Made by a program: the position numbers and the translations under genes
Part shown: one piece after another, positions 19,002 to 39,021 of the stretch
Layout: every line of letters starts with the position of its first letter
Numbering within the stretch: the stretch's first letter is position 1
Notes under the pieces: generated by a model
Database searches by the model: none
The model's input: only the letters and a program-made list of their open reading frames with translations
What the model was told of the DNA's origin: nothing
NCBI GenBank assembly: GCA_963797885.1
Contig: CAWCRQ010000143.1
Location: 2,349-66,348 of the forward strand
Direction of reading: 5' to 3'
Length of the DNA: 64,000 nucleotides
Origin: an uncultured Acidobacteriaceae bacterium
GTDB taxonomy: Bacteria > Acidobacteriota > Terriglobia > Terriglobales > Acidobacteriaceae

Positions 19002-19203
19002 GCACTGGAAAGAGAGCTTGCCTCGTCAGCAACCACTCCAGTGGGACGCCGCTGTGGGATAGTGTCCAGCAGATACAATCCTGTTGGCCCCTGAGCAGCC
19101 TTCTCCACTGGGAACACCGCTTCCATCCATCCCAGCTTGTCCTCGGGATATTGGCGACTCGAACTTCGGGGTTGGTGACGGGTTCCGTTCTATACTGCGC
19201 GAT

Positions 19204-19446
19204 ATGACGGAAAAGAAGACCGACCGTAGTGCCTGCCGTTTCACAGTCCAGCAAGCGAAAGATGGAAAGCCTTTCCTTGCCGTACACCTTTACCGCGACA
19301 CCATTCCGGTGCTGAGGGAATTATCGTTTGGATTTGACCTGCTTCGAGGCACGCAGGTCGAGGACGCCAAGAAGCTCGCCGAGATGCTGAACGAGCACGT
19401 TCTTGACATGTTTGTGACGACGGGGGAGAAAGCGTCTCCGGCATAG
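19204..19446 (+). CDS. Small hypothetical protein (80 aa)
   Basis: MTEKKTDRSACRFTVQQAKDGKPFLAVHLYRD.. is the inner ATG of track ORF 19084-19446. No homology recognised. Confidence 0.3.
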   Translation: MTEKKTDRSACRFTVQQAKDGKPFLAVHLYRDTIPVLRELSFGFDLLRGTQVEDAKKLAEMLNEHVLDMFVTTGEKASPA

Positions 19447-20087: not shown

Positions 20088-20372
20088 TATTGAACAGTTT
20101 TGGCTGATTCGTATCGGGTATTGTCGGCTATGTCGGGCTTTCGAACAGAGGCGGCCTGCGCTTACTAATCAAGAAGAATCGTGGGATAAGGTCGTCTCAC
20201 CGGAATTAGGCATTCAGAACACACCACAACGTACTGTGGCCTCGGCCTCCGAAACGGCAGCGCATTCGACTGAATGTAAACGTTCGAATCGTTTTCTGCC
20301 GGCCAGTTTGTAGAAGTGGCAAGAAGGTTGTACCGTTGTACCAACGGGCATTAGCTTTTGGAGGAAACCCAC

Positions 20373-20996
20373 ATGAAGCCAGTAATCACTGGAATGCTGT
20401 TACTTCTTTTCGGGGTCACTGTTCCTGCCTTCGCGCAGGAAGAGCACCACGAAGAGAGCGCTAAGCCAGCACAGCATGAGGAACAGGCTAAGCCTGCTGC
20501 AAAGCAGGAACAAGCCAAACCTCAGAAACAGGAACAGCAAGCTAAGCCACAGAAGCAAGAGCAAAAGGCGAAGAGCCAAGAACAGAACCAGCAGAAACAG
20601 GCACAGCCACAAGCCAAGGGCCAGCAACAGCAAGAAAAGAAACAACAGCAACAGCAGACCAAGACTCAGCAGAACCAGCAGCACCAACAACAGCAAGCCA
20701 GTGGCCATGCGCAACAATCACAAGTCCAGTACGCACGAAGTGGTCAGAAAGATAGGTACGGACACGAATACAACGAAAGTCATTTTGGTCCTAACCATCA
20801 TGCCCGCTTTGAGGCAAGTGGTGGGCGCGACTACGGACGCCGGGAGTACTCTTACGGCGGCTATTGGTTCTATGCAGGAGCATATCCGGAGTGGTTTTAC
20901 CAGCAGGACGTGTACTTCATTATGGGAGCGGATGGGCTATGGTATGCAGTTGCATACGGTAACCCTTCTCTAACCTTCCAAGTCAATATAGAGTAG
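20373..20996 (+). CDS. Secreted Gln/Lys-rich low-complexity protein with aromatic C-terminal domain
   Basis: GGAGGA lies 7 nt before ATG 20373. Signal peptide MKPVITGMLLLLFGVTVPAFAQ, ~110 aa of QEQ/AKPQKQ repeats, then a Tyr/Trp/Gly-rich ~90-aa tail. Confidence 0.6.
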   Translation: MKPVITGMLLLLFGVTVPAFAQEEHHEESAKPAQHEEQAKPAAKQEQAKPQKQEQQAKPQKQEQKAKSQEQNQQKQAQPQAKGQQQQEKKQQQQQTKTQQNQQHQQQQASGHAQQSQVQYARSGQKDRYGHEYNESHFGPNHHARFEASGGRDYGRREYSYGGYWFYAGAYPEWFYQQDVYFIMGADGLWYAVAYGNPSLTFQVNIE

Positions 20997-22559: not shown

Positions 22560-23223
22560 TTGACACGGCTCGCACTCATTCGCCACGGCGAAACCATCTG
22601 GAACGCGGAGAACCGGTACGCCGGCAGCACCGACATTCCGCTCAGCCCGCGTGGTTTAGAGCAGGCGGAGCGGCTCGCCAACTGGGCGTCCTCGGCTCAT
22701 CTCACCGCCATCTGGGTGTCGCCCCTGCTGCGAGCGCGGGAGACGGTAGCGCCATCGGAACATGCGACCGGCATCAGGGCTCGCGTTGAACTCCCGGCTC
22801 AGGGAGATTCAATTCGGTCAAGGGGAAGGGCTGACCGAGACTGAAATCAGGCAATCTTTTCCGCAAGCGTTCGCGGCCTTTCAGTCTGATCCCGTCGCCC
22901 ATCCCCTGCCCGGCGGTGAGGATCCGTGGGATGTCGCCGAGCGAGCCGCCGAGTGTTTCCAAGCGATGGAGACGCAGCATCCGTGTGGTCGCGTTCTCGT
23001 CGTGACGCACAACACGCTGATCCGAATTGCGCTTTGCAAATTGCTCGGCGTGCCGCTCTCAAAGTACCGCACAGTGTTTCCTACGATCGCCAACGGTGCG
23101 TTGAGCGAGATCCGCCTGCAGGATGGCCATGTTTCTCTCTTGAGGTTCAACTTACCGCTGGAATTTAATCTGGCCGGGCGCATGGGGGCTGACGAACCGG
23201 ACGCTCCCGGCGCTTCGTTCTAA
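22560..23223 (+). pseudogene. Histidine phosphatase (phosphoglycerate-mutase-like) family gene with one frameshift
   Basis: MTRLALIRHGETIWN..SPLLRARET (RHG catalytic motif) continues in another frame from about 22775 as ..LNSRLREIQFGQGEGLTETEI..VLVVTHNTLIRI. GAAAGGAGG precedes the TTG start. Confidence 0.75.
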
Positions 23224-23383
23224 CCCCGGTTCGAACTGGTAGCGGCAAAGATGGGGTAGAATACGCGCCTGGCACGCGGATTCCGGATTTCGGCGCGGGT
23301 TGCGGGCGTACTCCTCGAATTCGGAAACTCTCAACGTGAACGATCCTCAACGCGAACGAAGTGAACGATCTTTAACGTGAACT

Positions 23384-24730
23384 ATGACGCGAATCATTCT
23401 CATCGGAGCCGGCCGTGGTGGAAGAGCCTTGGTAGAACTATTTCACAAGGATCCGAGCGTCGAGATTGTCGGAGTCGCTGACAAGGATGAAGGCGCGCCC
23501 GGCATCGTGCTCGCCCGGGAACTTGGCTTACCCGTGGCCACGAACTACAGAAAATTCCTGAAGGCCGATGCCGCCGACCTCATCATCGATGTTACGGGCG
23601 ATCCCGACGTTGGCCGGGACGTTTATCGTCTGCGGCCCCACGGGACCGAAGTCGTTGGCGGCAAGACGGCGCGCTTCCTCTCGGAGTTCGCGGGAAACAA
23701 GAATCAAACAGAGTCGCTCCAGGATCAATACCAGCTCGCGCTGCGCGAACTCGAAGCGCGAGCCGAAGGCGAGTTCATCATCGGCAACAACTTGAAGATG
23801 AAAGAGATCTCGGAGCTGATTTCCAAGGTTGCGCCTACTCCTACCACCGTCTTGATTCGTGGCGAGAGCGGCACCGGCAAAGAGTTGGTGGCGCGAGCCA
23901 TCCATCGCAGCAGCGTGCGCAGCAATCACCCGCTGGTGACGCTGAATTGCACGGCATTGTCTCCCGCTCTGCTGGAAAGCGAACTCTTTGGCTACCGGCG
24001 CGGCGCCTTTACTGGCGCTTACAACGACAGCAAAGGGTTGTTCGAAAAGGCCGACGGCGGTACGATGTTTCTCGATGAAATTGGTGACATGTCGCTGGAG
24101 ATCCAGGCCAAATTTCTGCGCACGCTGCAAACCGGGGAGATTCGCGCCGTCGGGGACATGCGAACTCGAAAAGTTTCGGTGAGAATTGTCGCCGCCACCA
24201 ACCGTAATCTGGAGATTGCCATTCGCGAAGGCACGTTTCGCGAAGACCTGTTCTACCGGATCAACACCTTCTCCATCACCCTGCCGCCACTGCGCGAGCG
24301 GATTGAGGATATCCCGCTTCTCGCGGAATATTTTTTGCTGCGGGCCCGAGCCAAGGTGAACAAGAAAGTAGACAGCATTGCTCCACAAGCGCTCGCTCTG
24401 CTGAAGAACTATTCCTGGCCGGGCAATCTGCGCGAACTGGAAAACATCATTGAACGGGCCGTCGTCCTGGCGTCCTCCTCCGTGGTCGATGCCGAGCACC
24501 TTCCTCTTCACGTTCAAGACGTGGTGTCGCTCAAGCCCCAAATCGGATTCATGCCGAGCAAGGCGCACGCGATCGAGCAGTTTGAGCGGGAAGCGTTGTC
24601 CAGCTATTTGAGTAAAGCCGAGGGCAACGTCTCCAAAGCCGCAGCCTTGGCGAAAATTCCGCGCCGCACCTTTCATCGCCTGCTGGCAAAGCACAGGATT
24701 TCGACCCGCTCCTCGCGTGCCCCCAACTGA
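23384..24730 (+). CDS. Sigma-54-dependent Fis-family transcriptional activator with an atypical Rossmann-like N-terminal domain
   Basis: AAA+ core with Walker A GESGTGKE, the GAFTGA sigma-54 contact motif, Walker B MFLDEIG and a C-terminal Fis-type HTH. The N-terminus IILIGAGRGGRALVE..VEIVGVADKD.. looks like a dinucleotide-binding fold, not REC, GAF or PAS. Confidence 0.9.
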   Translation: MTRIILIGAGRGGRALVELFHKDPSVEIVGVADKDEGAPGIVLARELGLPVATNYRKFLKADAADLIIDVTGDPDVGRDVYRLRPHGTEVVGGKTARFLSEFAGNKNQTESLQDQYQLALRELEARAEGEFIIGNNLKMKEISELISKVAPTPTTVLIRGESGTGKELVARAIHRSSVRSNHPLVTLNCTALSPALLESELFGYRRGAFTGAYNDSKGLFEKADGGTMFLDEIGDMSLEIQAKFLRTLQTGEIRAVGDMRTRKVSVRIVAATNRNLEIAIREGTFREDLFYRINTFSITLPPLRERIEDIPLLAEYFLLRARAKVNKKVDSIAPQALALLKNYSWPGNLRELENIIERAVVLASSSVVDAEHLPLHVQDVVSLKPQIGFMPSKAHAIEQFEREALSSYLSKAEGNVSKAAALAKIPRRTFHRLLAKHRISTRSSRAPN

Positions 24731-24973
24731 GATATATGAGTCTCACTAGGGAGACATAATTGTCCACACGAAGACGGGTGGCATTAACTATTGATTTTTC
24801 ATGTGATTACATTCCTTAATCCTCGTTTGTCTGTGGGACATCTATGTCACTCATGGTGCACGTTGCGGGGACCTGTGCTTCCCGCCTTCTGTTCCCGCCC
24901 CTCGGACCCAACCGCAAGAAACAACAACTACTTATACAATCGCCATCTGTCATTACAGACGCTGAAGCCCGGT

Positions 24974-24989
24974 TGGAACGCAAATTGCT
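24974..24989 (+). promoter_or_regulatory. Candidate sigma-54 (-24/-12) promoter
   Basis: TGGAAC-GCAAA-TTGCT compared with consensus TGGCAC-N5-TTGCW; the GG and GC dinucleotides have exact spacing. It lies 245 nt downstream of the EBP gene and ~200 nt upstream of the CBS gene. Confidence 0.55.
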
Positions 24990-25186
24990 TTAATACACGC
25001 GCAGGCGGTGACGGCCGGCGAACCAGCCGCACTGACTCGAAGCCGAAGCCGCGAGAGCTAGGAAGCGCAGATGCAGCTGGGCTAAACAGCCCGGCTGTCT
25101 CTCAAGAGTTCAACCCGAATGCGGCAGCAAGTCAGTTTAGAAGTTGTAGCCTTTCGATAAAAAGCGGTGAAACCGGGAAGAAACGA

Positions 25187-25600
25187 ATGAAAGTCAGCGA
25201 GATCATGACTACGCGTGTGGTAGCAGCCAAAACGAATGCATCCTGCACCAGCCTCGTGCAAAAAATGCTCTCAGGTTTCCTTAGCGGGTTACCAGTGATC
25301 GATGACCATGGACACGTTATCGGAGTTGTTACTGAGTTCGACATCCTGAAAGTACTGCGAAATGGCGAGAATGGGTTGACCGCAGTGGCTAAGGACATCA
25401 TGACGAAAGAACCGATCTGTCTGGAGGCGAACCACACGGTCGATGAGGCGATCGAGTTGATGACCCGGCACCACATTATTCGAATCCCTGTCGTTTCCGC
25501 GGGCAAGTTAGTCGGCGTCGTGTCGCGAACGGACGTTCTTCGCGCCTATGTTAAGGAAGAATTTCAAGTATTCGAGACGACGCCGGAGTTCGAGGGATAG
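25187..25600 (+). CDS. CBS-pair domain protein
   Basis: MKVSEIMTTRVVAAK..GLPVIDDHGHVIGVVTEFDILK..DIMTKEPICLEANHTVDEAIELMTRHHIIRIPVV..LVGVVSRTDVLRA forms two CBS motifs. The longer track ORF (from 24791) has an implausible N-terminus. Confidence 0.8.
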   Translation: MKVSEIMTTRVVAAKTNASCTSLVQKMLSGFLSGLPVIDDHGHVIGVVTEFDILKVLRNGENGLTAVAKDIMTKEPICLEANHTVDEAIELMTRHHIIRIPVVSAGKLVGVVSRTDVLRAYVKEEFQVFETTPEFEG

Positions 25601-25724
25601 GCCGGCTGGCGGTACGCGATTTTATGAACTAATAGCGGCCGCTTCTTGATTCGAGTCCTGGACTCCAAGATCTGTGGGGGACCCGGAGGAGAGTCGAACC
25701 AAGCCCGGTAACGAGCGAGGGGCT

Positions 25725-26792
25725 ATGGACATTCGAGACCTCACCATTATCGGTGGAGGGCCAACCGGTCTGGCAGCGGCGTTCCGCGCGGGGATGCACG
25801 AAATCTCAGCGCGGATCATTGATACCGCTTCTCATCTTGGGGGACAAGTAACGGCGCTTTATCCGGAAAAGAATATATACGACGTGTTTGGGTTACCGGA
25901 AATTTTGGGCAAAGATCTGGTCCATAACTTGACTAAGCAGGCGCTGCAATTCGGCGCGGAAGTTCGTCTGGGCGAAGTGGTCAAGACGCTAACTCTGCAG
26001 AACGAGCAGAAGATTATGGAAGTGGTTACCGACCAGCAGGTTTATCAGACGCGAGCGGTGGTGCTGGCTGGTGGGCTCGGCTTAATCACCCCGCGCAAAC
26101 ACGAAGCGGAGGGTTGCGGTCGGCTGGAGGGACATGGAGTTTACTACTGCGTCCGCGACCCCGAACTCTTCCGTGGAAAGAAGGTTGTCATTGTGGGCGG
26201 TGGCGATTCGGCGCTGGATTGGGTCCTCAACTTAATGCCGATCGCTGCGCGAATCACCGTAGTCCATCGATCCGAGGAGTTCGCGGGACACGCCTCCACG
26301 CTGCGCCAGGTCCAGCAACTGGCGGATCACGGTCGTATTGGCCTGCATACCTCAACTCTGTTGACCGCGGCCCATGGCAATGGATATCTGGAAGCAGTAA
26401 CCCTGCGGGACTCGCGCGGGAAGGAGCGCACTGTGGAAGCCCAGGCGTTGCTTCCGATGATCGGATTCCATATCAATCTTGGCCCGATGGAGAAATGGGG
26501 TTTTGAGTTTGACGAGAAAAAGATCGTCGTGAACTCGCGAATGGAGACTAACTTGCCGGGTGTTTTTGCCGCCGGCGACATGGTTACGTATCCGGGAAAG
26601 ATAAAACTCATCGCCACCGGATTTGCGGAAGCCGCCATCGCAGTAAGAAGCGCCGTGGAATATGTCCGGCCCGGCCAGAAAGTACGGGTGCAATACAGCA
26701 GTATCGCGGGGGTTCCGAAAACTCGACCGGAGGCGTATTCGTCGTCCATGCAGCCGCATGTCGAGACCGCTTTCAGTCCGAAGTTAGCGTGA
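25725..26792 (+). CDS. Thioredoxin-reductase-like ferredoxin-NADP(+) reductase (YumC/TRLF type)
   Basis: LTIIGGGPTGLAAAF and VVIVGGGDSALDW dinucleotide motifs. GVYYCVRDPELFRGKKV replaces the TrxR CxxC redox site. Length ~355 aa. Confidence 0.8.
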   Translation: MDIRDLTIIGGGPTGLAAAFRAGMHEISARIIDTASHLGGQVTALYPEKNIYDVFGLPEILGKDLVHNLTKQALQFGAEVRLGEVVKTLTLQNEQKIMEVVTDQQVYQTRAVVLAGGLGLITPRKHEAEGCGRLEGHGVYYCVRDPELFRGKKVVIVGGGDSALDWVLNLMPIAARITVVHRSEEFAGHASTLRQVQQLADHGRIGLHTSTLLTAAHGNGYLEAVTLRDSRGKERTVEAQALLPMIGFHINLGPMEKWGFEFDEKKIVVNSRMETNLPGVFAAGDMVTYPGKIKLIATGFAEAAIAVRSAVEYVRPGQKVRVQYSSIAGVPKTRPEAYSSSMQPHVETAFSPKLA

Positions 26793-26844
26793 CGAGATAA
26801 CTGCCCGCGCGGCGCATGCGGAGCAGTCAAGCACGCGCCTGTGA

Positions 26845-28329
<1,485 letters not shown>

Positions 28330-28385
28330 GCTGCACTTAGTAACCAGCTTGTACCAAACTGCGTTTGTGAATGGAGAGACGAATC

Positions 28386-28787
28386 ATGCGAATTACACAA
28401 GGAACTTTTTCTTATTTGCCCGACTTCACGGAAGACCAGGTCAAAGCGCAGGTGCGCTACTGCTTCGAGAATGGCTGGGCTTTCTCCATCGAGCACACGG
28501 ACGATCCTCATCCCCGGAACTCGTATTGGGACATGTGGGGGCTTCCGATGTTTGAATTGCAAGAGCTGAACGAAGCGATGGAGCGCATCGATGAATGCCG
28601 GAAGGCCTTCCCCAACCACTACATCAAGCTGAACGGCTATGACCGCACCAAAGGGCGGCAAACGACGATGTTGAGTTTCATTGTGCAGCGGCCCGAGAAA
28701 GAGCCTGGGTTTTATTTGGAGCGCGCTGAGGCGCAGGATCGCCGTATCCAGTACACCATTCGCTCCAGGAGCCAGTCGGCAAACTAG
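28386..28787 (+). CDS. cbbS: RuBisCO small subunit, red-type (C-terminal beta-hairpin extension)
   Basis: MRITQGTFSYLPDFTEDQV..HPRNSYWDMWGLPMF..SFIVQRPEKEPGFYLERAEAQDRRIQYTI matches red-type CbbS. Confidence 0.92.
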   Translation: MRITQGTFSYLPDFTEDQVKAQVRYCFENGWAFSIEHTDDPHPRNSYWDMWGLPMFELQELNEAMERIDECRKAFPNHYIKLNGYDRTKGRQTTMLSFIVQRPEKEPGFYLERAEAQDRRIQYTIRSRSQSAN

Positions 28788-28847
28788 GGCTGTTGATGAG
28801 TCATCCGGGCGGAGACGCCGGCTGTCCACTAAAACGCGAGAAATGCC

Positions 28848-29843
28848 ATGCACAAACTGGATACAGATTCCGTCGTGGATCGAGCGCCTAGCGGTGAGCC
28901 CGAGGAGAGCCTCGTGGATATCGGCGCGGCACATCGGGATTCCAATCTCGACGAAATTCTGGACGAGCTCGATCGTGAACTGGTTGGTCTCCAGCCGGTG
29001 AAGGCCTACATCCGGCGTGTAGCATCGCTACTGCTGGTAACTCGGTTGCGCGAGAAGGTTGGTCTCTCCAACGAACGCCCGACATTGCACATGTCTTTTA
29101 CCGGACATCCGGGCACCGGCAAGACCACCGTCGCGTTGCGCATGGCGAAGATACTGCACCACCTCGGCTACCTGCGGCGCGGCCATCTGGTGGTTGCGAC
29201 CCGCGACGATCTGGTCGGTCAATACGTCGGCCACACGGCTCCCAAGACGAAGGAGATTCTGAAGAAGGCCATGGGAGGCGTGCTGTTTATCGACGAAGCG
29301 TATTACCTCTACCGGCCGGAAAACGAACGCGACTACGGTCAGGAAGCGATTGAGATGTTGCTGCAGGCTATGGAAAATCAGCGCGAAGATTTGGTCGTGA
29401 TCCTGGCCGGTTATCAAGATCGCATGGCGACCTTCTTTCAGTACAATCCCGGGTTTCGCTCCCGGGTGGCGCACCACATCAGCTTTCCCGATTACACGTT
29501 GCAGGAGCTGACGACGATTGCCGAATTGATGCTGCGCGAGCAGACCTACAGTTTTGATAACGAGGCGCGACAGGCGTTTGTTGAATACCTTGAATTGCGG
29601 ACCAAGCAGCCCCAATTTGCCAATGCTCGCAGTGTGCGCAATGCCGTCGATCGAATGAAGCTGCGTCAAGCCAGCCGGCTCGTCAGTGAGGGCGGGCGCA
29701 TTGGCAAAGAGCAACTCGTACGCATCGCCGCCGTCGACGTGCGTCAGAGCCGGGTTTTTCAAGGCGGGCTGGACGGAGAAACCGAAGCGGGCGCTGCAAG
29801 CGGCCCGCAACCCGTGCAGGGCAAGGCTAAGGAGGAGCGATGA
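28848..29843 (+). CDS. cbbX: CbbX, AAA+ red-type RuBisCO activase
   Basis: ..[94 protein letters not shown] is the characteristic CbbX sequence. Confidence 0.92.
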
Positions 29844-30853
29844 GAAGAAGACCAATCTTGCTGGGCATCGTGGGGGACAGCGCCGCCGGCAAAACAACGA
29901 TCACCCGGGGATTGACCCGGCTGCTGGGCGCGGAACGTGTGACCCACGTGTGTGCCGATGACTATCACAAGTACGACCGCACCGAGCGCGCGCGTCTGAA
30001 CATCACTCCGCTGCATCCCGACTGCAACTTTCTCGACATTCTGGAGTTGCACCTGGAGCGTGCGCACTACGGGCAACCCATGCTCAAGCCGGTCTATGAC
30101 CACAGCACCGGCTCACTGGTGCGGCCCGAGTATGTGGAACCGCGCGAGTTCGTCATTGTGGAAGGGTTGCTGGGATTTCACACGGAAGCGATGCGGCAAT
30201 TCTACGACGTCAAGGTTTTTCTCGATCCTCCCGAGGACATGAGGCGCCTTTGGAAAATCAAGCGCGACACCACCAAACGCGGTTATGCGCCCGAGCAAGT
30301 GTTGAAGGAAATGGATAAGCGCGAACCGGATTCGCGGGACTTCATCCGCCCACAGCGCGAATTCGCCGACATAGTCGTGCGCTTCTATCCGGAAAGCGGC
30401 GTGGGATCGGATCAGGCGGATGCGCATTTGAACGTGCATCTCGTGTTGCGCCCAACCATTCCTCATCCCGACCTGACTTATCTAGTGAACGATAAGAACG
30501 GCCAAACTGCGGGGATTCGCCTCGAACTCGGGCGCGACTGTGGACGGCCGGTGGAGTTTCTTGAGGTGGACGGCAGCGTGAGCCCCGAACACACCACCGA
30601 ATTGGAACAAGCGATCTGGAAGCATCTTCCCGATCTGCGGCCGTTGCGCGCCGATCAGTTCGGCGATTACAACGACGGCAGCGAAGTCCGGCATAGCGAT
30701 CCGCTGGCCCTAACGCAATTGCTCATCACTTATCACTTGCTGCGCGCTTATAGCAAGGACAGCCCCGTGCCCTTCGCGCGGCCGGTCGCGGCCCTGAGCC
30801 GATTGAAGTCGGTGCCGGAGGAATCGCCAGTGGAGGCTGTTACCAAACAGTAG
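29840..30853 (+). CDS. prk: Phosphoribulokinase (cyanobacterial/plant-like class II type)
   Basis: [21 protein letters not shown]-loop, [42 protein letters not shown]. The start overlaps the cbbX stop (ATGA) and AAGGAGGAG lies upstream. Confidence 0.88.
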
Positions 30854-31015
30854 TGGGGTGACGCGTGCCAGCACAGGTGCGCAGGATTCAGCCGTCGAAT
30901 TCAATTGGGGAGCCGTTCCTACTCTTCATGTTTACGTCCGGGCCGCGTATTTGTCTCCGAATGGGTTTACGATATCGATTGTCAAAAATCGACTCAAGGT
31001 CAAACTGTGTAAACC

Positions 31016-31684
31016 TTGGCGAATTTTCTTGACAAGGGCTTCTTAAGAATTGTAAACACAACGCTCGTTTCATTTTTTGAAATAGCGTCCCGTTCGTCAT
31101 ACCTATCCGATCTGGCCGTGGTCAAGACGCGCCAAGCTCCTATCTACGAGGAAGCGAATGAATTGTCCAAAATTCTCTTACGTGCGGATCCAGAGGATGA
31201 ATTTGAAGTAACCGAAGCGCGATTCGGGTGGGTTCATGTGCGGCTGCAAGATTCAGGCCGGGGCTGGATAAAGATCTCGGAACTCCTGCTACCGAATGAG
31301 CGGGATAATAGTGACGACTCCGCGGACTTTACCGAGCCCAGTGAGGAAGTCGCCCCGTTTACTGGGAGCTGGCTGCCGCTCAAAGACAAGCCGACCCTTT
31401 TCGTGGTTGCGCAGCCTAAGCACGCGATTCCCAAAGAATCGCTTGGGCAGAGTCAAATCGAATTTGCCAAGCAAGGTTTCCTCGACGGGTACAGAACCGC
31501 TGCTCATTCCCAAGAGAAAATTGTTGGCGTGGCGGCACTGTTCCTGGGCGACAAAGCGGGCGTCGCTGCCGCAACCCTCACAGACATCGACCGATGGCAG
31601 AAGGGCACTCTTTCCGACAAATTGTTTCTCGCACGCTGCTCCCTTTCCCCGCCCGATGCTTTCCGTGACGCTGCCAAGCATTGA
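31016..31684 (+). CDS. Hypothetical protein with bacterial SH3-like segment, probably 5'-truncated
   Basis: ..VVKTRQAPIYEEANELSKILLRADPEDEFEVTEARFGWVHVRLQDSGRGWIKISELL is SH3b-like. Only a TTG start is available, with no signal peptide or RBS. Confidence 0.4.
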   Translation: MANFLDKGFLRIVNTTLVSFFEIASRSSYLSDLAVVKTRQAPIYEEANELSKILLRADPEDEFEVTEARFGWVHVRLQDSGRGWIKISELLLPNERDNSDDSADFTEPSEEVAPFTGSWLPLKDKPTLFVVAQPKHAIPKESLGQSQIEFAKQGFLDGYRTAAHSQEKIVGVAALFLGDKAGVAAATLTDIDRWQKGTLSDKLFLARCSLSPPDAFRDAAKH

Positions 31685-32072
31685 TTTGATTCGCCGGTTT
31701 CAGTCGTCGAGGAGTTCGAATTGAAAGCGCTCTAGGGAGTAGCCAATCACGTTCGCGGATGCGAACTAAAGAACCGACCGGATATTCTCCGACTTATCCG
31801 GTGACCATTGCTGAACTCTATTTCGATGAACTAAAAACTATAGCACCGTAGAGATCATCAATTCGCTTGCGACAGTTGGCAGCAATGGGAACGGGAACCA
31901 CCGAAGAAAATGTCGTCGCCATCGACACTTTCCGCAACTCGGCATTTCCCCCAAGCTGCAATGCCTCCGAACAGCCAATCCCCGTCACCGAGCAATATGT
32001 TGACGGTGATCCCAGTCTGTCACTGAGCAACGAGAAGTCATCGATTTACAATCTTTTGCCGAGGGGGTAACA

Positions 32073-32393
32073 ATGGCAAATCTAACGGGATTAGTTGGCT
32101 TTGTATCAGAATTGAAGACGGTGAGAACGAATTTGGTGAGTGAGCTTCGGCATGTTGATGCGGCTCTTTCGGTGCTTGGCAAGTTGGGCGGCGGGAGCAA
32201 TCACGCGAAACCGGGGCGTAGGGTGTCAGCATCGGCTCGCAAGCGCATGAGCCTCGCGCAGAAAGCGCGATGGGCGAAGACGAAGAGTCGAGCGCCGAAA
32301 CCCAAGCGCACGATATCCGCCGCTGGTCGAAAAAGAATTGCAGCCGCTCAGCGGGCAAGGTGGACGAAGTTGAAGGCGGGAAAGAAGAAGTAG
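32073..32393 (+). CDS. Small highly basic protein with a duplicated RKR..AQ.ARW motif
   Basis: GAGGGGG lies ~6 nt before the ATG. The N-terminal helix is LVGFVSELKTVRTNLVSELRHVDAALSVLGKL. Two repeats follow: SASARKRMSLAQKARWAKTK and SAAGRKRIAAAQRARWTKLK. Confidence 0.55.
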   Translation: MANLTGLVGFVSELKTVRTNLVSELRHVDAALSVLGKLGGGSNHAKPGRRVSASARKRMSLAQKARWAKTKSRAPKPKRTISAAGRKRIAAAQRARWTKLKAGKKK

Positions 32394-32620
32394 GCTGCGT
32401 AGAGGCAACAACTCGAAAGAGGGATTGTCGTTATGATGTTTTCAACAAGCTTTCGGTTTTCCCCAAGCCGAGCTGGAGTGTGTTTGAACCTCACAGCTTG
32501 TCGTGCGTTGAGTCACTGATTTTCATCCGTGACGGCATAGTCTGGAATTGATTAATGATTGATCCGCACGCAATCCCCTCCGGGCGGGTCGCCCCAATCA
32601 AAAAGCAAAGGAGATTCATC

Positions 32621-32944
32621 ATGTTTGGCCGCATCGTTGAATTTACTCCCAAGCCGGAAATGAAAAAAGAGATCGTGAACGTTCTCCGCAAAGAGGTTTT
32701 GCCGATCCTAAAGAAACAGCAGGGATTTATGGAGTTCCTGCCCTTCGTGCCGGAGACCAAAACGGAAAAGTGGATCACCGTCACTCTTTGGGCCGAGAAG
32801 CGGGATGCAGACCGCTGGGAGCGCGAAGGGTATCCCCATGTGGAAGGAATCCTCAAACTCTATCTGGTCGCCCCCGCCATCTGCAATTACTACAACTTGG
32901 AAACCTCCCTTTGCACGCACTTAGTAGAAGCCCTGACGGCCTGA
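32621..32944 (+). CDS. Small ferredoxin-fold (ABM/Dabb-like) protein
   Basis: AAAGGAG RBS precedes ATG 32621. MFGRIVEFTPKPEMKKEIVNVLRKEVLPILKKQQGFMEF..ITVTLWAEKRDADRW is a typical ABM-monooxygenase-like pattern. Confidence 0.5.
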   Translation: MFGRIVEFTPKPEMKKEIVNVLRKEVLPILKKQQGFMEFLPFVPETKTEKWITVTLWAEKRDADRWEREGYPHVEGILKLYLVAPAICNYYNLETSLCTHLVEALTA

Positions 32945-33415
32945 GGTCTGACACGAGCGGCAGGAATTCGCCGCTTGTTTTGCTCGCGACCAATGACGCG
33001 AGTATTCTTTTCGGTTCCCCGATAGTCATCGAACTGGTTTCCAGCACGGCGAGTTCGCTGTGAGCAGCGTACATCAATATGTGATTGCTGTCACTGACAG
33101 GACGCGCTCATTCATCTAGACATTAGAACTATTCGCGCCTCACCGAAGAGCAGTTCCCAACCCGGTGTGCACACCCCCTGAGGCGAGAGCTTTTTGGGCC
33201 TAGGAGATCGAGGCCGGAACTCTCGTAGCTGAAACGAATCGACTTCGACCATGGCCCCCTGCTTCCGTCCGTGAAGGAGGTTTGCTATGACGCGCAATCC
33301 CACTCTTAATTATTCTCTCGGTGTTGTTGCGGCTTCGGTTGCTTCTGCCGCAATTCTGGCTCTCTTGATCGCAGCCGCCTTGAAATTGGGGTAACTGCAA
33401 GCGCAAACAAAGGGG

Positions 33416-33709
33416 GTGGCGACGATGACCACTTACGGTGAATGGATAAAGAAGTCTGCGCGTATCGGCGCATCACTCGGCGGTGTCGCCGGGTTTTTCT
33501 ATGGAGCCTACATAATGGCGACCAACCTCACTCTCGGCTGGACAGATGTATTGGACACAGTGGGGTCGGTTGCCGCTACGCTTATATTCGCGGTCATATT
33601 AGGTAGCCTTTGTATCGCAGTTGGTGCGCTGGCAGGACTGGTCTTGGGCGTCGTTGCGTCTCCGCTTAGCGCACTCCACTTTCGGAGGTCTCGATACTTC
33701 TCCGGATAG
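33416..33709 (+). CDS. Small membrane protein
   Basis: Two or three hydrophobic helices (GGVAGFFYGAYIM, VAATLIFAVILGSLCIAVGALAGLVLGVV). AAGGGGG lies upstream. Confidence 0.4.
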   Translation: MATMTTYGEWIKKSARIGASLGGVAGFFYGAYIMATNLTLGWTDVLDTVGSVAATLIFAVILGSLCIAVGALAGLVLGVVASPLSALHFRRSRYFSG

Positions 33710-34517
33710 ATCGCCCATTTCACGTCCTCAAGGAAGCCAAGGCGGGGGACGCGAAGCGGCAAGAGTCCGCTCCGACCGACGCGACGGCGTAAGGTCGCCG
33801 TGCTGATTGCGATGACATGGGCATGCAAAACGACCCAGAGCAGGTTCTCTCTGGGTCGATTAGGGAATCAGGTAGCCAATGTCTGCAACTACAATTCTGC
33901 TCGAAGTTCACAAACTCAACGACGTGAGCGATCACCTCCGCTCTCTAGCGGGGCAACATCCTGTCGTCTCGGAAGGGCTCCTCGCCATCTCGTCACACGT
34001 TCGCAACAGCGCCACTATATTGGAAGAGTTGTCCACGACGAAAATGTCGCACGCAGCAATGGAAGACCACGCTATCGGATCTGGAGAAGACTTACGATGT
34101 CACTCTGGAAGGCTTTGGTGACGCTCTGTCCCTGACCATAGCATATAAGCTACTTGCCTTATGGCGAATCGCCAAAGAATATGTCTGTCGTGGTTTTACT
34201 GGGAACACCAGCTTTCCACGCCGTGGCAAATCCTTAGGATTTCCAGAAGTTCATCAGGAACCTCGATGGTGCGTTCCTCCGTTCCTCCCATGTCTTCGGC
34301 TGCCAGTCTGGTTCAAATTTCCGGGGAACTTGCTTAGGTCTACGACCGAGGCGTCCCACTCCTCGCGCACCCTTGTGCAGATATCCTGCTCGCGGAGCTT
34401 GCCTAGTGTTCAAAGTTTGAACTTTCAAACTTTCCCCATCGCGGGGTCAAGCGCGGTCATTCGGGCGTACTTGGCAGTGAAATGTTGGACAGCCTCGTTC
34501 GGGTGAAATCTCTTGAG

Positions 34518-34811
34518 CTAGGAATAGGAAGCCCGTACACTCTCCAGCGATGTGTGGTCGTGAGCCGTCGAGCCGTCACCATGGACAACGTGCCCTGTCC
34601 ATCCGCACTGCTCGAATCTTTTTAATCGTGCGCCTATGAACTCTTTGACTGTGAGGTTGTTCTTCGCTCGACGCTTGAAGTTGTAGTGGCCTACATGAAG
34701 TTCAGCTCCCCTCACAGCCCGGCCGCTCTCGATCTTCACTAGCCGGACTTGGAAGCCTTCAAAATACCAAATCTTCATTTCGACTTTCTTCAGAAGCAGC
34801 TGTCCTTTCAT
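34518..34811 (-). CDS. Hypothetical protein (97 aa), downstream member of an overlapping gene pair
   Basis: Its start overlaps the stop of 34808-35122 (ATGA). No homology recognised. Confidence 0.35.
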   Translation of the reverse strand: MKGQLLLKKVEMKIWYFEGFQVRLVKIESGRAVRGAELHVGHYNFKRRAKNNLTVKEFIGARLKRFEQCGWTGHVVHGDGSTAHDHTSLESVRASYS

Positions 34812-35122
34812 CTTGCGCCCGTCAACTCGCTGCGGCGCGTGCTTTCTTGTACCCCGCGCTGAGCCTTGTGTTTGAGCAACAAATGCAAGATCGCCAGCGA
34901 GCGTTCAATTTTCCGCTTCTCTTCCCCTGAACCGTTGCTATCCCCTGCCAATTCTCGCAGCCTCCCCTGAATAGCTTTCTCGGCAAGCCCGATCCAATCA
35001 AGCACCTTGTCGTTGTCTAGCTCCAAGACAGCAGCCCGATAGAGTTGCGACCAATCCACGTGGGTTTGCACTTGATTCATAAGCATCCCAATTCTTTTTC
35101 CTTGAAAAACGAAGCGCAACAT
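34808..35122 (-). CDS. Hypothetical protein (104 aa), upstream member of an overlapping gene pair
   Basis: Helical composition (..LYRAAVLELDNDKVLDWIGLAEKAIQGRLRELA..). No homology recognised. Confidence 0.35.
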   Translation of the reverse strand: MLRFVFQGKRIGMLMNQVQTHVDWSQLYRAAVLELDNDKVLDWIGLAEKAIQGRLRELAGDSNGSGEEKRKIERSLAILHLLLKHKAQRGVQESTRRSELTGAR

Positions 35123-35197
35123 GACTTCCCGTTACGCCTGACCTGCCGCCCTAATTAACCCCCGACCCTCCCGTGGTACGAACAGGCACTTTGGGGA

Positions 35198-35353
35198 TCA
35201 TTCTCTCGGCCGGATTATTCCGCCTGCGAGGAGCGTCTCGCATTCTTTGGGCGGGAGGTCGAGCAGTATCTTGTTGTGGAGATGGTTTCCGTCACCGTCG
35301 TTGAGGGATGAATTCAGGGCGAATTTTGTAGGTGGAGGTCGGTTGTTGGCCAT
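35198..35353 (-). pseudogene. Possible N-terminal remnant of a Crp/Fnr-type cNMP-binding regulator
   Basis: MANNRPPP..NKILLDLPPKECETLLAGG.. resembles the start of acidobacterial cNMP-binding-domain proteins, but it stops after ~50 codons. Confidence 0.25.
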
Positions 35354-35676
35354 AAACGGCTCCTTGAACAACGGGGGATGCCATCTGATTTTGCAAGGAA
35401 CCGTCACCCGACTGGGCGCGGCGGAAGGATGCTAGAGGAGACATCTCAAGGCTACTCCTTTTCCCTCCCCGTGTGTTGGAAATAAAAACACGCCTTCAGG
35501 CTGTGCGAGACGGGTTCTCCATCACTGGAAATCCTAAGTTCTAGATTCGCAATTCACCAGCAGATCGGCTCGAATGTTTAGCTGAATCGAGCCCCAAGTT
35601 CAGTCATCGAAAAGACGCCCCAGTTCTTCCTATTTAGTGTGCCGTCGGCCAACGCAAAATCTGTTTCACCAGCAGG

Positions 35677-35705
35677 TTGACAATAGGGGCGCACAAGCCT
35701 AGCAT
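35677..35705 (+). promoter_or_regulatory. Sigma-70-type promoter of hsp20
   Basis: TTGACA, 17 nt spacer, TAGCAT, about 105 nt upstream of the hsp20 ATG. Confidence 0.5.
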
Positions 35706-35711
35706 CGGGTT

Positions 35712-35802
35712 GAGCAAGCCATCTCTTCTTGCTCGTTCAGGTCCTCTGAACTAAGTCAGTCCATCTGAAGTTTTTCCTCTTAGCGCCCCTCTGAAGGAGG
35801 AA
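35712..35802 (+). promoter_or_regulatory. Candidate RNA thermometer (ROSE-like multi-hairpin 5' UTR)
   Basis: Consecutive hairpins: GAGCAAG..CTTGCTC (35712-35734), GTTCAG-gtcct-CTGAAC (35735-35751), and TTCCTCTT (35774-35781) pairing with the SD AAGGAGGAA (35794-35802). Confidence 0.45.
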
Positions 35803-35809
35803 TTGCGTC

Positions 35810-36319
35810 ATGACACTATTGACCCGTTGGGAGCCTTTCCGCGAGTTTTCCACCATGCAGGACCGCATGAACTGCTTGAACCGTCTTTTCCGTGAGGCGT
35901 ACAAGCCCGAAGGCCCGGAAGAGGCGTTGACGACCACCAGCTTTGCACCGCCCGTGGACATCTACGAAGACGAGCACAACATTACTCTGAAGCTTGAAGT
36001 TCCGGGCATCGAAGAAAAAGACATTGATGTCCGCATCGAGAACACCACCCTCACCGTCCATGGCGAGCGCAAGATCGAGAAGGAAGAGAAAGAAGAGAAC
36101 TTCCGTCGCGTGGAGCGGCAGTACGGAAGCTTTACACGTTCGTTCACGCTGCCCAGTTCCGTCGATCCGGAGCAGGTGAGCGCCCACTATGACAAGGGCG
36201 TGTTGAAGATCAACCTCGCCAAAAAGGCCGAAGCCAAGCCGAAGCAGATCAAGGTAAACGTCGGCAACCAGAAGACGCTGGAAGGCAAAGAGCCGAAGCG
36301 CGTCGGCAAGGCCGCGTAA
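35810..36319 (+). CDS. Hsp20/alpha-crystallin family small heat-shock protein
   Basis: ..FAPPVDIYEDEHNITLKLEVPGIEEKDIDVRIENTTLTVHGERK..FRRVERQYGSFTRSFTLPSSVD..AHYDKGVLKINL is a canonical ACD. Confidence 0.92.
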   Translation: MTLLTRWEPFREFSTMQDRMNCLNRLFREAYKPEGPEEALTTTSFAPPVDIYEDEHNITLKLEVPGIEEKDIDVRIENTTLTVHGERKIEKEEKEENFRRVERQYGSFTRSFTLPSSVDPEQVSAHYDKGVLKINLAKKAEAKPKQIKVNVGNQKTLEGKEPKRVGKAA

Positions 36320-36342
36320 GACCAGTAGTCAGTGAAAGAAAT

Positions 36343-36376
36343 GGGAGGCGGCCTATATCGCCTCCCCATTTTGTTT
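36343..36376 (+). terminator. Rho-independent terminator after hsp20
   Basis: GGGAGGCG-gcctatat-CGCCTCCC followed by CATTTTGTTTG. Confidence 0.7.
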
Positions 36377-36416
36377 GTCGTTCCGAGCGGTTACGGCTCC
36401 GGACGCGGAGGTTCCA

Positions 36417-37508
36417 ATGTCAAACATGCGCAAGGATATCTTCACTGACCGCTGGGTAATCGTGGCGGACGGCGACGGGTTGCAGCCGACCGACTTTCAT
36501 TTCAAGAAATTCGCAAAGGACACGGGCTTCTGCCCATTCTGCGAGAGCCATGAGTCCGCAACGCCCAAGGAAGTCTTCGCCATCCGTAATCGCACATCTT
36601 CGCCTAACGGGCCGGGGTGGTCAGTAAGAGTGGTGCCAAACTCCCGACCGCGCTTGAGGATCGAAGGCGAACTGGCACGACGGGCCGAAGCGTTGCACGA
36701 CCTAATGAACGGAGTGGGGGCACACGAAATCATCGTGGAGACAGCGCGGCACGACCGAAGCCTGCATGAGTTAGAAATCGAGGAAATCTCCGACATTATC
36801 AAAGCTTATGTAGCTCGCATTAATGATCTTGAGGGAGATAAGCGTGTGCGCTACGTTTTGATCTTCAAGAATCACGGTGAGGGAGCCGGGGCTCACACCA
36901 TTAGTCATTCCATCTCGCAGTTGGTCGCACTCCCGATAACGCCACGTGCAGTGAAGACGAAACTCATGATTGCTCGTGACTACTTTGCCTTAAAGGAACG
37001 CTGCATCTACTGCGACGTGCTCCAACAGGAGTTAAAGGGCCGGAAGCGATTGATCGGTGAAAATGAGGATTTTGTGGCGTTTGCTCCGTTCGCGTCACGC
37101 TTTCCGTTCGAGATGTGCGTCTTGCCGAAGTTTCACAGCAGCGCATTCAGCCGAATCGAGACAACTCAAAGCAAGAATTTAGCTCTGATCCTGCGTGACG
37201 TGTTGCAGAAGTTGGATCAAAAGGTAGGCGGGCCGCCCTACAACCTGTCGCTGCACGACCGACCGTTTCTGCGTCCTAGAGGGGACTACTGGAACACAAT
37301 CGAGGAGGACTTCCATTGGCATATAGAAATCCTGCCCCACGTGTCTCGTATTACTGGATTCGAGTGGGCCTCGGGATTCTTCTACAACCCCTTGCCGCCG
37401 GAAGTCGCCGCCCGCTGCCTCTCGGCGGATGCTCCGTCCGATCTTCCTACCGAAGCCGACCTGCCACTTGAACCCTTGGAGGCTCCCCTGTCAGAGGTCG
37501 TAACATGA
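36417..37508 (+). CDS. Galactose-1-phosphate uridylyltransferase / ADP-glucose phosphorylase-like HIT-superfamily protein
   Basis: Zn-site GFCPFCESHE, ..HEIIVETARHD.., FKNHGEGAGAHTISHSISQLVALP, ..CIYCD..FVAFAPFASRFPFEMCVLPK.. GGAGG RBS lies 5 nt before the ATG. Confidence 0.8.
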   Translation: MSNMRKDIFTDRWVIVADGDGLQPTDFHFKKFAKDTGFCPFCESHESATPKEVFAIRNRTSSPNGPGWSVRVVPNSRPRLRIEGELARRAEALHDLMNGVGAHEIIVETARHDRSLHELEIEEISDIIKAYVARINDLEGDKRVRYVLIFKNHGEGAGAHTISHSISQLVALPITPRAVKTKLMIARDYFALKERCIYCDVLQQELKGRKRLIGENEDFVAFAPFASRFPFEMCVLPKFHSSAFSRIETTQSKNLALILRDVLQKLDQKVGGPPYNLSLHDRPFLRPRGDYWNTIEEDFHWHIEILPHVSRITGFEWASGFFYNPLPPEVAARCLSADAPSDLPTEADLPLEPLEAPLSEVVT

Positions 37509-37645
37509 CGTGAAGCAGCATGCGGCCCACTGTCGTTCGTTTCCGGTGATGTCCATTAGTCCTTACCCAGCCGGGAGGCTAGTACAATTCTAGGACAATT
37601 CAGGCAAGAAATCAAAAACTGGCAGGTTTTATGCGGGCAAAAGAA

Positions 37646-37690
<45 letters not shown>

Positions 37691-38039
37691 GGGAAATTCC
37701 CGCCCAATTCCGAACAACTCCACCCAACTAAGTCCAACCAAACATTTGAAAAGTGCCGCCGCGTCCTTGCCTCACTTTGGCTACGGCTGGCCGCAGTTCA
37801 CGGACAGAAAGCGGACAACTCGGTCAGGGCGTGAGAGTCATCATCAATGATCACTTCGAGGTGGTAATCGTGATCGAGGTTGTGGACCGCGCATAGTTTC
37901 CGGCTTGCCAACAAACCGTCCCGAATCCTGGTCATCACTTCCCACAAGCCCCTTTCTGGATAGCTTCCGGTTGGCCGACAACACACCCGGAATCGTCGCA
38001 TCCTCTCCGACGGGCTGCGCACGCTATAATTGCCGCCAC

Positions 38040-38938: not shown

Positions 38939-39021
38939 CCAGGGAAGGCAACCTCGTGTGATTTCGTAACGCCCTAACTTACTGAAATGCTGGCATACGG
39001 GTTTGTCCTAATCGCCCAAAC

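Follow-up and report, generated by a model that had tools for sequence, protein, structure and literature searches.

The window analysed here, i.e., the whole stretch of 64,000 nucleotides from contig CAWCRQ010000143.1 of an uncultured Acidobacteriaceae bacterium of soil or peat (assembly GCA_963797885.1), probably encodes a functional Calvin-cycle carboxylation operon of a Candidatus (Ca.) Sulfotelmatobacter-like member of the Terriglobales, which would be transcribed from a sigma-54 promoter under the control of a dedicated activator encoded directly upstream. The module consists of seven genes, i.e., those for the activator, a stand-alone CBS-pair protein, a ferredoxin-NADP+ reductase (FNR), the large (CbbL) and small (CbbS) subunits of RuBisCO, the activase CbbX, and phosphoribulokinase (PRK), whose coordinates are given in Table 1. 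An earlier reading, made from the letters of the sequence alone and called the sequence-only reading in the following, had described these genes as co-directional with gaps of 124, 82, 56, 60, and -4 nucleotides between the six operon genes. All seven open reading frames (ORFs) are indeed intact, the gaps are exact, and the last of them corresponds to a 4-nucleotide overlap of prk with cbbX. The start codons chosen in that reading agree with the gene calls of a 92%-identical locus, L081 (related loci are designated by such numbers throughout).

The enhancer-binding protein seen directly upstream of the operon in the sequence-only reading is a bona fide member of its class, since it combines an AAA+ domain (Sigma54_activat, PF00158, E = 4e-69), in the translation of which the GAFTGA motif can be read, with AAA_lid_14 and a DNA-binding helix-turn-helix (HTH) domain (HTH_8, PF02954, E = 3e-7). 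No database record matched the exact sequence of the window activator. A search with the activator protein identified at least 120 clusters, with identities of 75-93%; nearly all are of full length, all contain the sigma-54 domain, and most have a precomputed N-terminal Rossmann match. The named sources are all Terriglobales, Sulfotelmatobacter, or Acidobacteriaceae. In about 27 distinct loci, whose flanks differ, cbbLSX-prk is directly preceded by the gene for an activator of at least 72% identity (among them L002, L005, L006, L081, L082, L083-85, L086-88, L089, L090/91, L092, and L094/95), and the genomic contexts that could be read gave no counter-example. The loci include 17/17 metagenomic ones with this degree of identity for which 2.5 kb or more are available downstream of the activator gene. 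A sister subfamily of activators with 58-59% identity was considered as a wider cbb regulator and was rejected, as its members adjoin genes for DnaB, a PEP-mutase/isocitrate-lyase-family protein, and a permease, without cbb genes; no TGG-N8-TTGC match was found downstream of them. Because of this different context, the cbb-linked activators appear to constitute a specific subfamily. The DnaB gene beside a 59%-identical activator (L121, 2321-4957) carries an intein with a LAGLIDADG endonuclease domain.

The motif TGGAAC-N5-TTGCT (TGGAACGCAAATTGCT), which had been proposed as the promoter of the operon, is confirmed at its position. In the window as a whole TGG-N8-TTGCW occurs six times versus 4.9 times expected, so that the promoter match is not significant alone; it becomes significant because it is conserved in homologous loci. 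Exactly one TGG-N8-TTGC is found in each spacer between the activator gene and the next gene (13/13), always on the coding strand and 221-257 nucleotides past the activator stop codon, the background being 0.066 per kb per strand. A matching -24/-12 element is present as well in all other metagenomic loci that offer enough sequence, and in two of these CTGC replaces TTGC while the GG and GC dinucleotides are kept. The element is situated 221-260 nucleotides past the activator stop codon in most loci and about 350 nucleotides past it in L120. The regions upstream of cbbL in the activator-less loci L001, L004, and L007 contain no TGG-N8-TTGC motif, and activator-less L003 has a single distant, chance-like match at -687.

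When the spacers of 10 loci are aligned, three conserved islands stand out from diverged sequence, i.e., palindromes, a CCCAAC block, and the -24/-12 element. The palindromes, with a GAGAC-N6-GTCTC-like consensus and two or three copies per spacer, are putative binding sites for the activator. Their core GAC-N6-GTC is enriched 8.5-fold in the 270 nucleotides upstream of the -24 element; 17 of 23 loci have it at -133 to -140, and further copies cluster at -213 to -241. The proximal site of the window lies about 137 nucleotides upstream of its -24 element. The block situated between these sites and the promoter is possibly a DNA-bending site similar to that of integration host factor, judging from its comparison with the consensus WATCAANNNNTTR. 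With GG at -24 and GC at -12 in canonical spacing and activator sites further upstream, the spacer has the layout of a textbook activator-dependent sigma-54 promoter, and a sigma-54 regulatory link to the cbb operon is well supported at the level of comparative sequence data. A second conserved element, GATGGGGTAGAATACGCGCCTGG, about 110-135 nucleotides upstream of the activator start, is near-identical in the window, L081, L082, and L083, where the surrounding intergenic DNA is unrelated, and it probably constitutes the activator's own promoter with TAGAAT as -10 region.

The arrangement suggests that all six genes downstream of the sigma-54 promoter are co-transcribed from it. A scan of 22.4-31.8 kb for consensus sigma-70 promoters and terminators gave counts at or below shuffle expectation, and no intrinsic terminator that would interrupt the module genes or follow prk was encountered in it. 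An Rfam scan of 19-36 kb, including the 200-nucleotide leader, revealed no RNA element or riboswitch at E <= 0.1. The distance between promoter and cbbL varies from 82 to > 1900 nucleotides across loci. An extra gene for a CarboxypepD_reg-domain protein (L092, 8658-9398) or a stretch of 1.8 kb (L115, 1479-3259) lies between the promoter and the first recognisable operon gene, and in L086-L089 there are 600-840 nucleotides without a called gene between promoter and operon. The leader region thus appears to be a hot spot of gain and loss.

Table 1. Features of the RuBisCO module and its upstream neighbourhood (positions in the window).
Feature	Position	Strand	Basis
His_Phos_1 histidine phosphatase gene, split as 22560-22844 and 22762-23223	22560-23223	+	Pfam and alignment
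Conserved 23-nt element GATGGGGTAGAATACGCGCCTGG	23250-23272	+	
Sigma-54 enhancer-binding protein (activator) gene	23384-24730	+	Pfam/NCBIfam profiles
Weaker third palindrome copy, seen by eye, overlapping the activator stop codon	24729-24744		
Distal putative activator-binding site GAGAC-ATAATT-GTCCA, core GAC-N6-GTC at 24753-24764	24751-24766	+	Alignment
Proximal putative activator-binding site GGGAC-ATCTAT-GTCAC, core at 24837-24848	24835-24850	+	Conserved alignment block
Conserved block CCCAACC..AAGA..AACTACTTA between binding sites and promoter	24907-24934	+	Alignment of closer loci
Predicted sigma-54 promoter, -24 TGGAAC / -12 TTGCT	24974-24989	+	Conserved in related loci
Stand-alone CBS-pair protein gene (137 amino acids), first gene of the operon	25187-25600	+	Pfam CBS, two copies, E = 2e-31
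FNR gene, thioredoxin-reductase-like (355 amino acids)	25725-26792	+	Solved-structure matches
cbbL, large subunit of a red-type form I RuBisCO (probably form IE group)	26875-28329	+	NF003252 at 750 bits
cbbS, RuBisCO small subunit	28386-28787	+	Pfam RuBisCO_small, E = 5e-39
cbbX, AAA+ activase of red-type RuBisCO	28848-29843	+	TIGR02880, 483.5 bits (cut-off 459.25)
prk, phosphoribulokinase, PRK07429 subfamily	29840-30853	+	NF005655, 415 bits (cut-off 236)

CbbL matches solved form I enzymes with top E values of 1e-227 to 8e-241, the red-type structures 4f0h/1bwv, 1bxn, and 5nv3 included. In an alignment with the solved red-type enzymes all catalytic motifs are kept, including FGGGTIGHP, and the catalytic residues of the large subunit (Lys175/177, the carbamylated Lys201, Asp203, Glu204, His294, His327, Lys334, and the glycine-rich loops) are present. 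Adjacent large and small subunit genes and the presence of these residues identify a form I red-type RuBisCO. Its extended C-terminus, the target of CbbX, aligns through residue 482 with red-type enzymes, and this feature together with a score above the cut-off of the equivalog model identifies CbbX as the corresponding activase. PRK is recognised by its score above cut-off and its P-loop, GDSAAGKTT; PRK15453, the other NCBIfam model for phosphoribulokinases, matches with E = 6e-9 only. Plant PRK possesses a Cys16-Cys55 thioredoxin switch, and since the P-loop of the window PRK is devoid of cysteine such a switch is unlikely for this enzyme.

For the activator, an architecture can be delineated which consists of an N-terminal Rossmann sensor (residues 1-100), a coiled linker, the AAA+ domain with GAFTGA, and the Fis-type HTH domain. 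Residues 1-100 have weak Pfam matches to DapB_N and GFO_IDH_MocA. In an AlphaFold model of residues 1-129, built on 27 homologues, with a mean predicted local distance difference test score of 82.8 and no 10-residue block below 89 from residue 1 to residue 90, the N-terminus forms an alternating strand-helix Rossmann sheet. A Foldseek search of this model against the Protein Data Bank returned NAD(P)-binding domains only (E values of 7e-5 to 1e-3, TM-scores of about 0.6), i.e., those of acetaldehyde dehydrogenases (7z3s, 1nvm, and 4jn6), members of the GFO/IDH/MocA family, homoserine dehydrogenase, GAPDH, and DapB. All 27 homologues keep a GxGxxG motif (G8, G10, and G13) and, where strand 2 ends, Asp33; GxGxxG followed by an acidic residue in this place is the NAD(H)-type Rossmann signature. 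As the catalytic/dimerisation half of the matched enzymes is absent, the domain modelled here would be a binding module and not an enzyme, and its ligand is most likely a dinucleotide, NAD(H) or NADP(H). An exhaustive search with the 109-residue domain (23384-23710) detects 966 representative clusters, formed at 50% identity, at E <= 1e-3, and 290 at E <= 1e-10. The sampled proteins, in which it occupies the N-terminal position, comprise other sigma-54 activators, PAS/GAF histidine kinases, hybrid kinases, and one GGDEF protein, as is expected of a signalling input domain. Pfam contains no model dedicated to it, and the domain has the appearance of a sensor input that is common among signalling proteins and still without a name.

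The first two genes of the operon encode the CBS protein and the FNR. The best solved relative of the FNR is that of Chlorobaculum tepidum (3ab1, full-length, E = 1.7e-94), and 6gas, 3lzw, and 5ygq are matched as well. Nearly all of the best solved matches (E values from 1e-94 to 1e-46) were deposited under the name of FNR, and the first thioredoxin reductases appear at E = 1e-33. In the aligned region, YYCVRD stands in the place of CATC, and no CxxC pair exists. As a flavoprotein with two dinucleotide domains that is closest to FNRs and lacks CxxC, the protein is predicted to be an FNR of the thioredoxin-reductase-like type. The CBS protein contains two motifs of the type G-h-h-(T/S)-x-x-D (GVVTEFD and GVVSRTD), which we take to be the ribose-binding signature of adenosine-ligand sites. 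A redox pair of the CP12-like or thioredoxin type was considered for these proteins and rejected, since the CBS protein has no cysteine-containing C-terminal extension, the FNR no CxxC, and the P-loop of PRK no cysteine. CBS and FNR genes precede cbbL in L081, L082, L092, L094/95, L115, L119, and L125, and the CBS protein is 79-98% conserved in L081, L082, L092, L094, L115, L119, and L125, and also occurs in activator-less L096. L090 has kept a degenerate CBS remnant. In L096/97, where a transaldolase gene is located between the CBS and FNR genes, a HisKA_3 kinase and a NarL-type regulator are encoded upstream and there is no sigma-54 activator; the presence of the pair at this activator-less locus suggests that it is tied to RuBisCO and not to the activator. 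Because loci bearing the pair fall in several Terriglobales subclades, it is probably ancestral and has been lost repeatedly.

The sequence-only reading had taken the red-type RuBisCO of Proteobacteria as a reference. This does not seem to hold, as the window enzyme appears to belong with the form IE group and not with forms IC/ID. Scanning one genome per species, CbbL is closest to seven Acidobacteriota metagenome-assembled genomes (Ca. Sulfotelmatobacter, Korobacteraceae, and Terriglobales; 89-92% identity). They are followed by Vicinamibacteria, Chloroflexales/Oscillochloris, Ardenticatenales, and Methylacidiphilaceae (81-83%), and further away by Actinomycetota, Dormibacterota, and Eremiobacterota (72-81%); overall, the closest relatives of this RuBisCO are Terriglobales/Ca. 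Sulfotelmatobacter assemblies (89-98%). The nearest 80 genomes by CbbL represent exactly the phyla reported to possess form IE, i.e., Actinomycetota, Chloroflexota, Verrucomicrobiota, Dormibacterota, Eremiobacterota, and Acidobacteriota, five genomes of the latter having already been listed (PMC9561532), and the window RuBisCO is best read as form IE. This form dominates form I sequences of soil (bioRxiv 10.64898/2026.05.21.726994). In the form IE group, cbbL-cbbS-cbbX is the general order, and prk usually comes next.

In neighbour-joining trees of CbbL, CbbX, and PRK, drawn from a small sample without form IA-ID reference sequences, the Terriglobales form a monophyletic clade in each case. 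Its neighbours include Chloroflexota and Vicinamibacteria in all three trees, joined by Methylacidiphilaceae in those of CbbL and CbbX (this family is not in the PRK set), and Actinomycetota are more distant. The window PRK is about 50% identical to actinobacterial and 67-74% identical to Chloroflexota and Vicinamibacteria enzymes. The monophyly of the Terriglobales in the three trees implies that any transfer of the cbb genes is old. The module was also considered as a foreign island, for which the composition test is negative, since its tetranucleotide profile correlates with the rest of the window (r = 0.93) and its GC content at third codon positions (0.63-0.74) is inside the range of the window. 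Of the claim that the module was acquired horizontally, an old cassette shared across phyla therefore remains, and a recent import is not supported. The four-gene core seems to have moved between phyla as a unit, long ago, and to be a lineage trait inside the Terriglobales.

Around this core the regulator varies. The form IE loci L014 and L018 of Actinomycetota have LysR regulators, as read from their N-terminal sequences, a response regulator is encoded upstream in L008 and L009, and the regulator of L096 is assigned to the NarL type by NCBIfam. With LysR or two-component regulators at other form IE loci, the regulator appears to have been exchanged around a conserved cbbLSX(-prk) core, LysR, NarL-type two-component, and sigma-54 activators being used in different phyla. 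The complete order at the activator-less locus L096 (8140-16442) is HisKA_3 kinase, NarL-type regulator, CBS, transaldolase, FNR, cbbL, an unknown 120-amino acid ORF, cbbS, cbbX, prk, and phosphoglycolate phosphatase. The CbbL of L096 sits outside the Terriglobales clade on a long branch, while CbbX and PRK of the same locus group with Terriglobales, and this operon looks mosaic.

For the module of the window, the sequence-only reading had stressed that it is self-contained and minimal. This is true within the window. In a profile scan of ORFs of at least 150 amino acids, LysR regulators, further Calvin-Benson-Bassham (CBB) cycle enzymes, and carboxysome genes are absent from the 64 kb, as had been stated before, and rpoN is not among these ORFs either; an RpoN-box search of the window was also empty. 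No match was obtained when the 64 kb were searched by tblastn with relatives' sequences for LysR, transketolase (tkt), glpX, transaldolase, phosphoglycolate phosphatase, NiFe hydrogenase, FGGY kinase, and NarL-type proteins. The putative LysR proteins of L014 and L018 were among these queries, and neither they nor the profile scan disclosed in the window the LysR gene that characterises a CbbR-regulated cbb operon. Minimality does not extend to close relatives, in which the operon is enlarged with tkt, glpX, transaldolase, or phosphoglycolate phosphatase genes. A phosphoglycolate phosphatase gene follows prk in L081 and in L096 (192 bits, above the TIGR01449 cut-off), and in L086-89 genes for transketolase and a GlpX fructose bisphosphatase follow prk, with a divergent transaldolase gene. 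On the 1.48-Mb contig of L082, genes for the large and small subunits of a NiFe hydrogenase are located 4-10 kb upstream of the module (1-6726). This cluster also includes a second small-subunit-like gene, a PAS histidine kinase, and a GerE-type response regulator, and the extra small subunit and the kinase presumably recall an H2-sensing regulatory hydrogenase set. Many genes of L082 are split, suggesting assembly frameshifts.

All seven genes are under purifying selection, with ratios of nonsynonymous to synonymous substitutions (dN/dS) of 0.05-0.22 in comparison with L081 and of 0.05 for the CBS gene. That the genes are intact, selected in this way, and placed inside a conserved dedicated regulatory circuit argues that the RuBisCO pathway is used and conditionally expressed and not vestigial. 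Synonymous divergence (dS) from L081 falls along the module from 0.46 in the activator gene to 0.15-0.20 in the CBS, FNR, and cbbL genes and to 0.07 in cbbS and prk, which suggests recombination break-points between lineages inside the module.

In the mechanism that we propose, the activator would bind to two or three GAC-N6-GTC palindromes about 135 and 220 nucleotides upstream of the promoter, and its N-terminal Rossmann domain would bind NAD(H) or NADP(H), report the state of the reductant pool, and gate the AAA+ ATPase. ATP hydrolysis would then, via the GAFTGA loop, open the sigma-54 closed complex, and one transcript of about 5.9 kb would provide RuBisCO, its activase, and PRK, whereupon housekeeping enzymes of the pentose-phosphate and gluconeogenic pathways, with genes at other sites of the genome, would complete the cycle. 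The FNR would connect the cycle and its demand for NADPH with the pools of ferredoxin and NADP(H), and the CBS-pair protein might act as adenine-nucleotide-sensing partner of FNR or PRK; these roles of FNR and CBS protein are the weakest part of the proposal. The output of the system might be autotrophy, mixotrophy, or redox balancing. Accessory CBB genes and the hydrogenase of relatives favour real CO2 assimilation, which is probably facultative and linked to lithotrophy.

Several observations weigh against this interpretation. The approximately 27 loci are related sequences, so that conservation of the motif does not amount to 27 independent trials. The close relatives L001, L003, L004, and L007 possess cbbLSX-prk without the activator, and because of these loci the activator is not to be regarded as indispensable for cbbLSX-prk. 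A sequence search with the activator N-terminus against solved structures gave insignificant matches only. Finally, the phosphoglycolate phosphatase gene that follows prk in L081 is missing in the window, and the adjacent phosphatase gene is frameshifted.

A different view of the same region, close to that of the sequence-only reading, would be that a self-sufficient carboxylation cassette was recently imported into a heterotroph, where it serves mainly as a CO2-dependent sink for excess reductant and not for carbon gain. DNA homology to L081 (92% identity) covers 23382-30851 and almost nothing else of the window matches, an IS110 transposase gene, an integrase fragment, and truncated genes are found downstream, and the composition is least typical in the window at 30-39 kb. 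The cbbLSX-prk cassette groups across phyla, and the window contains no other CBB gene and no hydrogenase or phosphoglycolate phosphatase gene. We nevertheless consider this view unlikely, as the module itself has a native composition and the monophyly of the Terriglobales in the CbbL, CbbX, and PRK trees makes any transfer an old one. Moreover, relatives have tkt, glpX, transaldolase, and phosphoglycolate phosphatase genes with the operon and, in one case, a NiFe hydrogenase cluster at 4-10 kb, and the His_Phos_1 neighbour stretches the shared block past the cassette in many loci. A dinucleotide-type sensor together with an FNR would fit redox balancing, and the evidence decides neither for nor against a role as electron sink; real CO2 assimilation agrees at least equally well with the accessory CBB genes and the hydrogenase of relatives.

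If adjacency had no regulatory meaning, the activator would control itself or other genes, the cbb genes would be expressed from an unrecognised sigma-70-type promoter, and the -24/-12 element would have another role. Such a situation would be compatible with the motif frequency in the window, which is not above chance for the motif alone, with the relatives that keep the same genes without the activator, and with the variable distance between promoter and cbbL. It is very improbable in view of a gene order that is invariant in about 27 loci despite changing flanks, of invariant GG and GC dinucleotides at correct spacing inside otherwise diverged spacers, of upstream palindromes at fixed positions as at classical activator-dependent promoters, and of sister activators (58-59%) which are encoded elsewhere, without cbb genes or a downstream TGG-N8-TTGC. 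It is hardly credible that the module is decaying in this genome and represents a remnant nearing loss. The frameshifted His_Phos_1 gene, the missing phosphoglycolate phosphatase gene, and the fragment-rich right flank could be understood in this way, but the seven genes are of full length with their catalytic motifs, their dN/dS values are low, and the frameshift may be an assembly error, L082, which is from the same European Nucleotide Archive accession series as the closest loci, being full of split genes. A functional operon under a dedicated sigma-54 activator is the interpretation that we prefer.

The phosphatase gene to the left of the module had been described as a frameshifted flanking gene. 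The frameshift is real in the sequence, one extra A being present near 22789 in comparison with the intact homologues of L083, L082, and L092, and positions 1-72 and 73-192 of the His_Phos_1 profile are distributed over the two ORFs; it may reflect a true pseudogene or an assembly error. The gene is more than a flank, since at least 12 related loci (L082, L083, L092, L099, L103-L106, L109, L124, L128, and L130) also have it upstream of the activator gene, and it ought to be regarded as loosely belonging to the module. Its function is generic, with ribazole-phosphatase/PspA-like matches below curated cut-offs.

On the right side, the fragment-rich character noted before is real, with an IS110 transposase, an integrase fragment, and a truncated arginase. 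The SH3 gene that had been proposed there is doubtful, all matches behind this call being sub-threshold (E = 6e-4). Many short orphan ORFs lie in 30854-42300, where the truncated arginase gene (39886-40446) and the gene for the IS110-family transposase (41147-42259) are located, and a partial phage-type integrase is encoded at 51755-52576. The tetranucleotide profile at 30-39 kb has r of about 0.83. An integration site at a tRNA gene near the module was considered and discarded, as the two tRNA genes, at 1.4 and 61.7 kb, are unrelated to it. At 19158-19446 a stretch of 289 nucleotides shares, in the reverse direction, 94% identity with a portion of a MacB/FtsX permease gene that is found upstream of the L081 module, and may be the remnant of an earlier shared neighbourhood that was rearranged later. 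At 20358-20996 a 212-amino acid ORF combines an N-terminal hydrophobic segment with a long low-complexity repeat rich in Q, K, and E (QQQ/KPQKQEQ). The rest of the window consists of typical Acidobacteriota genes for CarboxypepD_reg outer-membrane barrels, pilin-like proteins, and MacB/FtsX permeases.

Operons for form IE RuBisCO from Actinomycetota, Ca. Dormibacterota, Ca. Eremiobacterota, and Chloroflexota, known from studies on 'atmospheric chemosynthesis' (PMC9561532), share with the window the order cbbL-cbbS-cbbX, often followed by prk, and probably the enzyme clade. The actinobacterial form IE loci inspected have, to judge from N-terminal sequences, a LysR gene beside cbbL, whereas in the window a sigma-54 activator takes this place and CBS and FNR genes precede cbbL. 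The CbbR-dependent operons of Proteobacteria such as Cupriavidus necator and Rhodobacter sphaeroides likewise unite red-type RuBisCO, CbbX, and prk in one operon with the regulator directly upstream. CbbR-controlled cbb promoters are of the sigma-70 type. In contrast, no LysR gene occurs in the 64 kb of the window, its regulator is co-directional and not divergent, the promoter is predicted to be of the sigma-54 type, and the operon is without fbp, tkt, gap, pgk, and rpe. With NifA/nif, HoxA/hox, NorR, and PspF the activator has in common the GAFTGA-bearing AAA+ domain, the Fis-type HTH, palindromes 100-250 nucleotides upstream of a -24/-12 promoter, and an N-terminal sensing domain, which differs between systems. 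Its input, however, is a Rossmann fold of about 100 residues and not a GAF, PAS, V4R, or receiver domain, and its presumed target is a RuBisCO operon.

The repressor Rex, which senses NADH/NAD+, likewise employs a Rossmann domain as a sensor and not as a catalyst, with GxGxxG and an acidic residue where strand 2 ends. The activator is not of the Rex type, as it has no winged-helix Rex DNA-binding domain, its sequence match to Rex is insignificant (E of about 1), and it would act by ATP-dependent sigma-54 activation, not repression; the likeness to Rex seems to be an analogy of mechanism only. The FNRs of C. tepidum and Bacillus subtilis (YumC) are thioredoxin-reductase-like and without CxxC as is that of the window, which differs from them by its operon linkage to RuBisCO and a stand-alone CBS-pair protein, a combination of which we know no described case, although no literature search was aimed at this pairing. 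No report of a dedicated sigma-54 activator with a Rossmann-type sensor controlling a RuBisCO operon was found in the literature. The set of form IE RuBisCO, CbbX, and PRK and the occurrence of form IE in Acidobacteriota are thus known already, and the wiring to a sigma-54 activator appears to be new.

Acidobacteriota are among the most abundant bacteria of soil and peat and are treated as heterotrophs. To our knowledge, autotrophic growth by the Calvin cycle has not been demonstrated for any member of the phylum. It can be suggested, at present only tentatively, that Terriglobales gate CO2 fixation by an NAD(P)H-sensing sigma-54 activator, that their form IE operon brings its own FNR and CBS pair for coupling to reductant, and that the Rossmann input represents a widespread sensor module. 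An unnamed Rossmann-type input domain that looks common in signalling proteins is flagged in any case. Apparent re-wiring of the cbb core to at least three types of regulators is useful for understanding, and for engineering, the installation of the Calvin cycle in new hosts. The module offers testable handles, i.e., a defined promoter, defined putative binding sites, and a small sensor domain with a measurable ligand, and these could tell when soil Acidobacteria fix CO2 and permit metatranscriptomes to be read for the switch.

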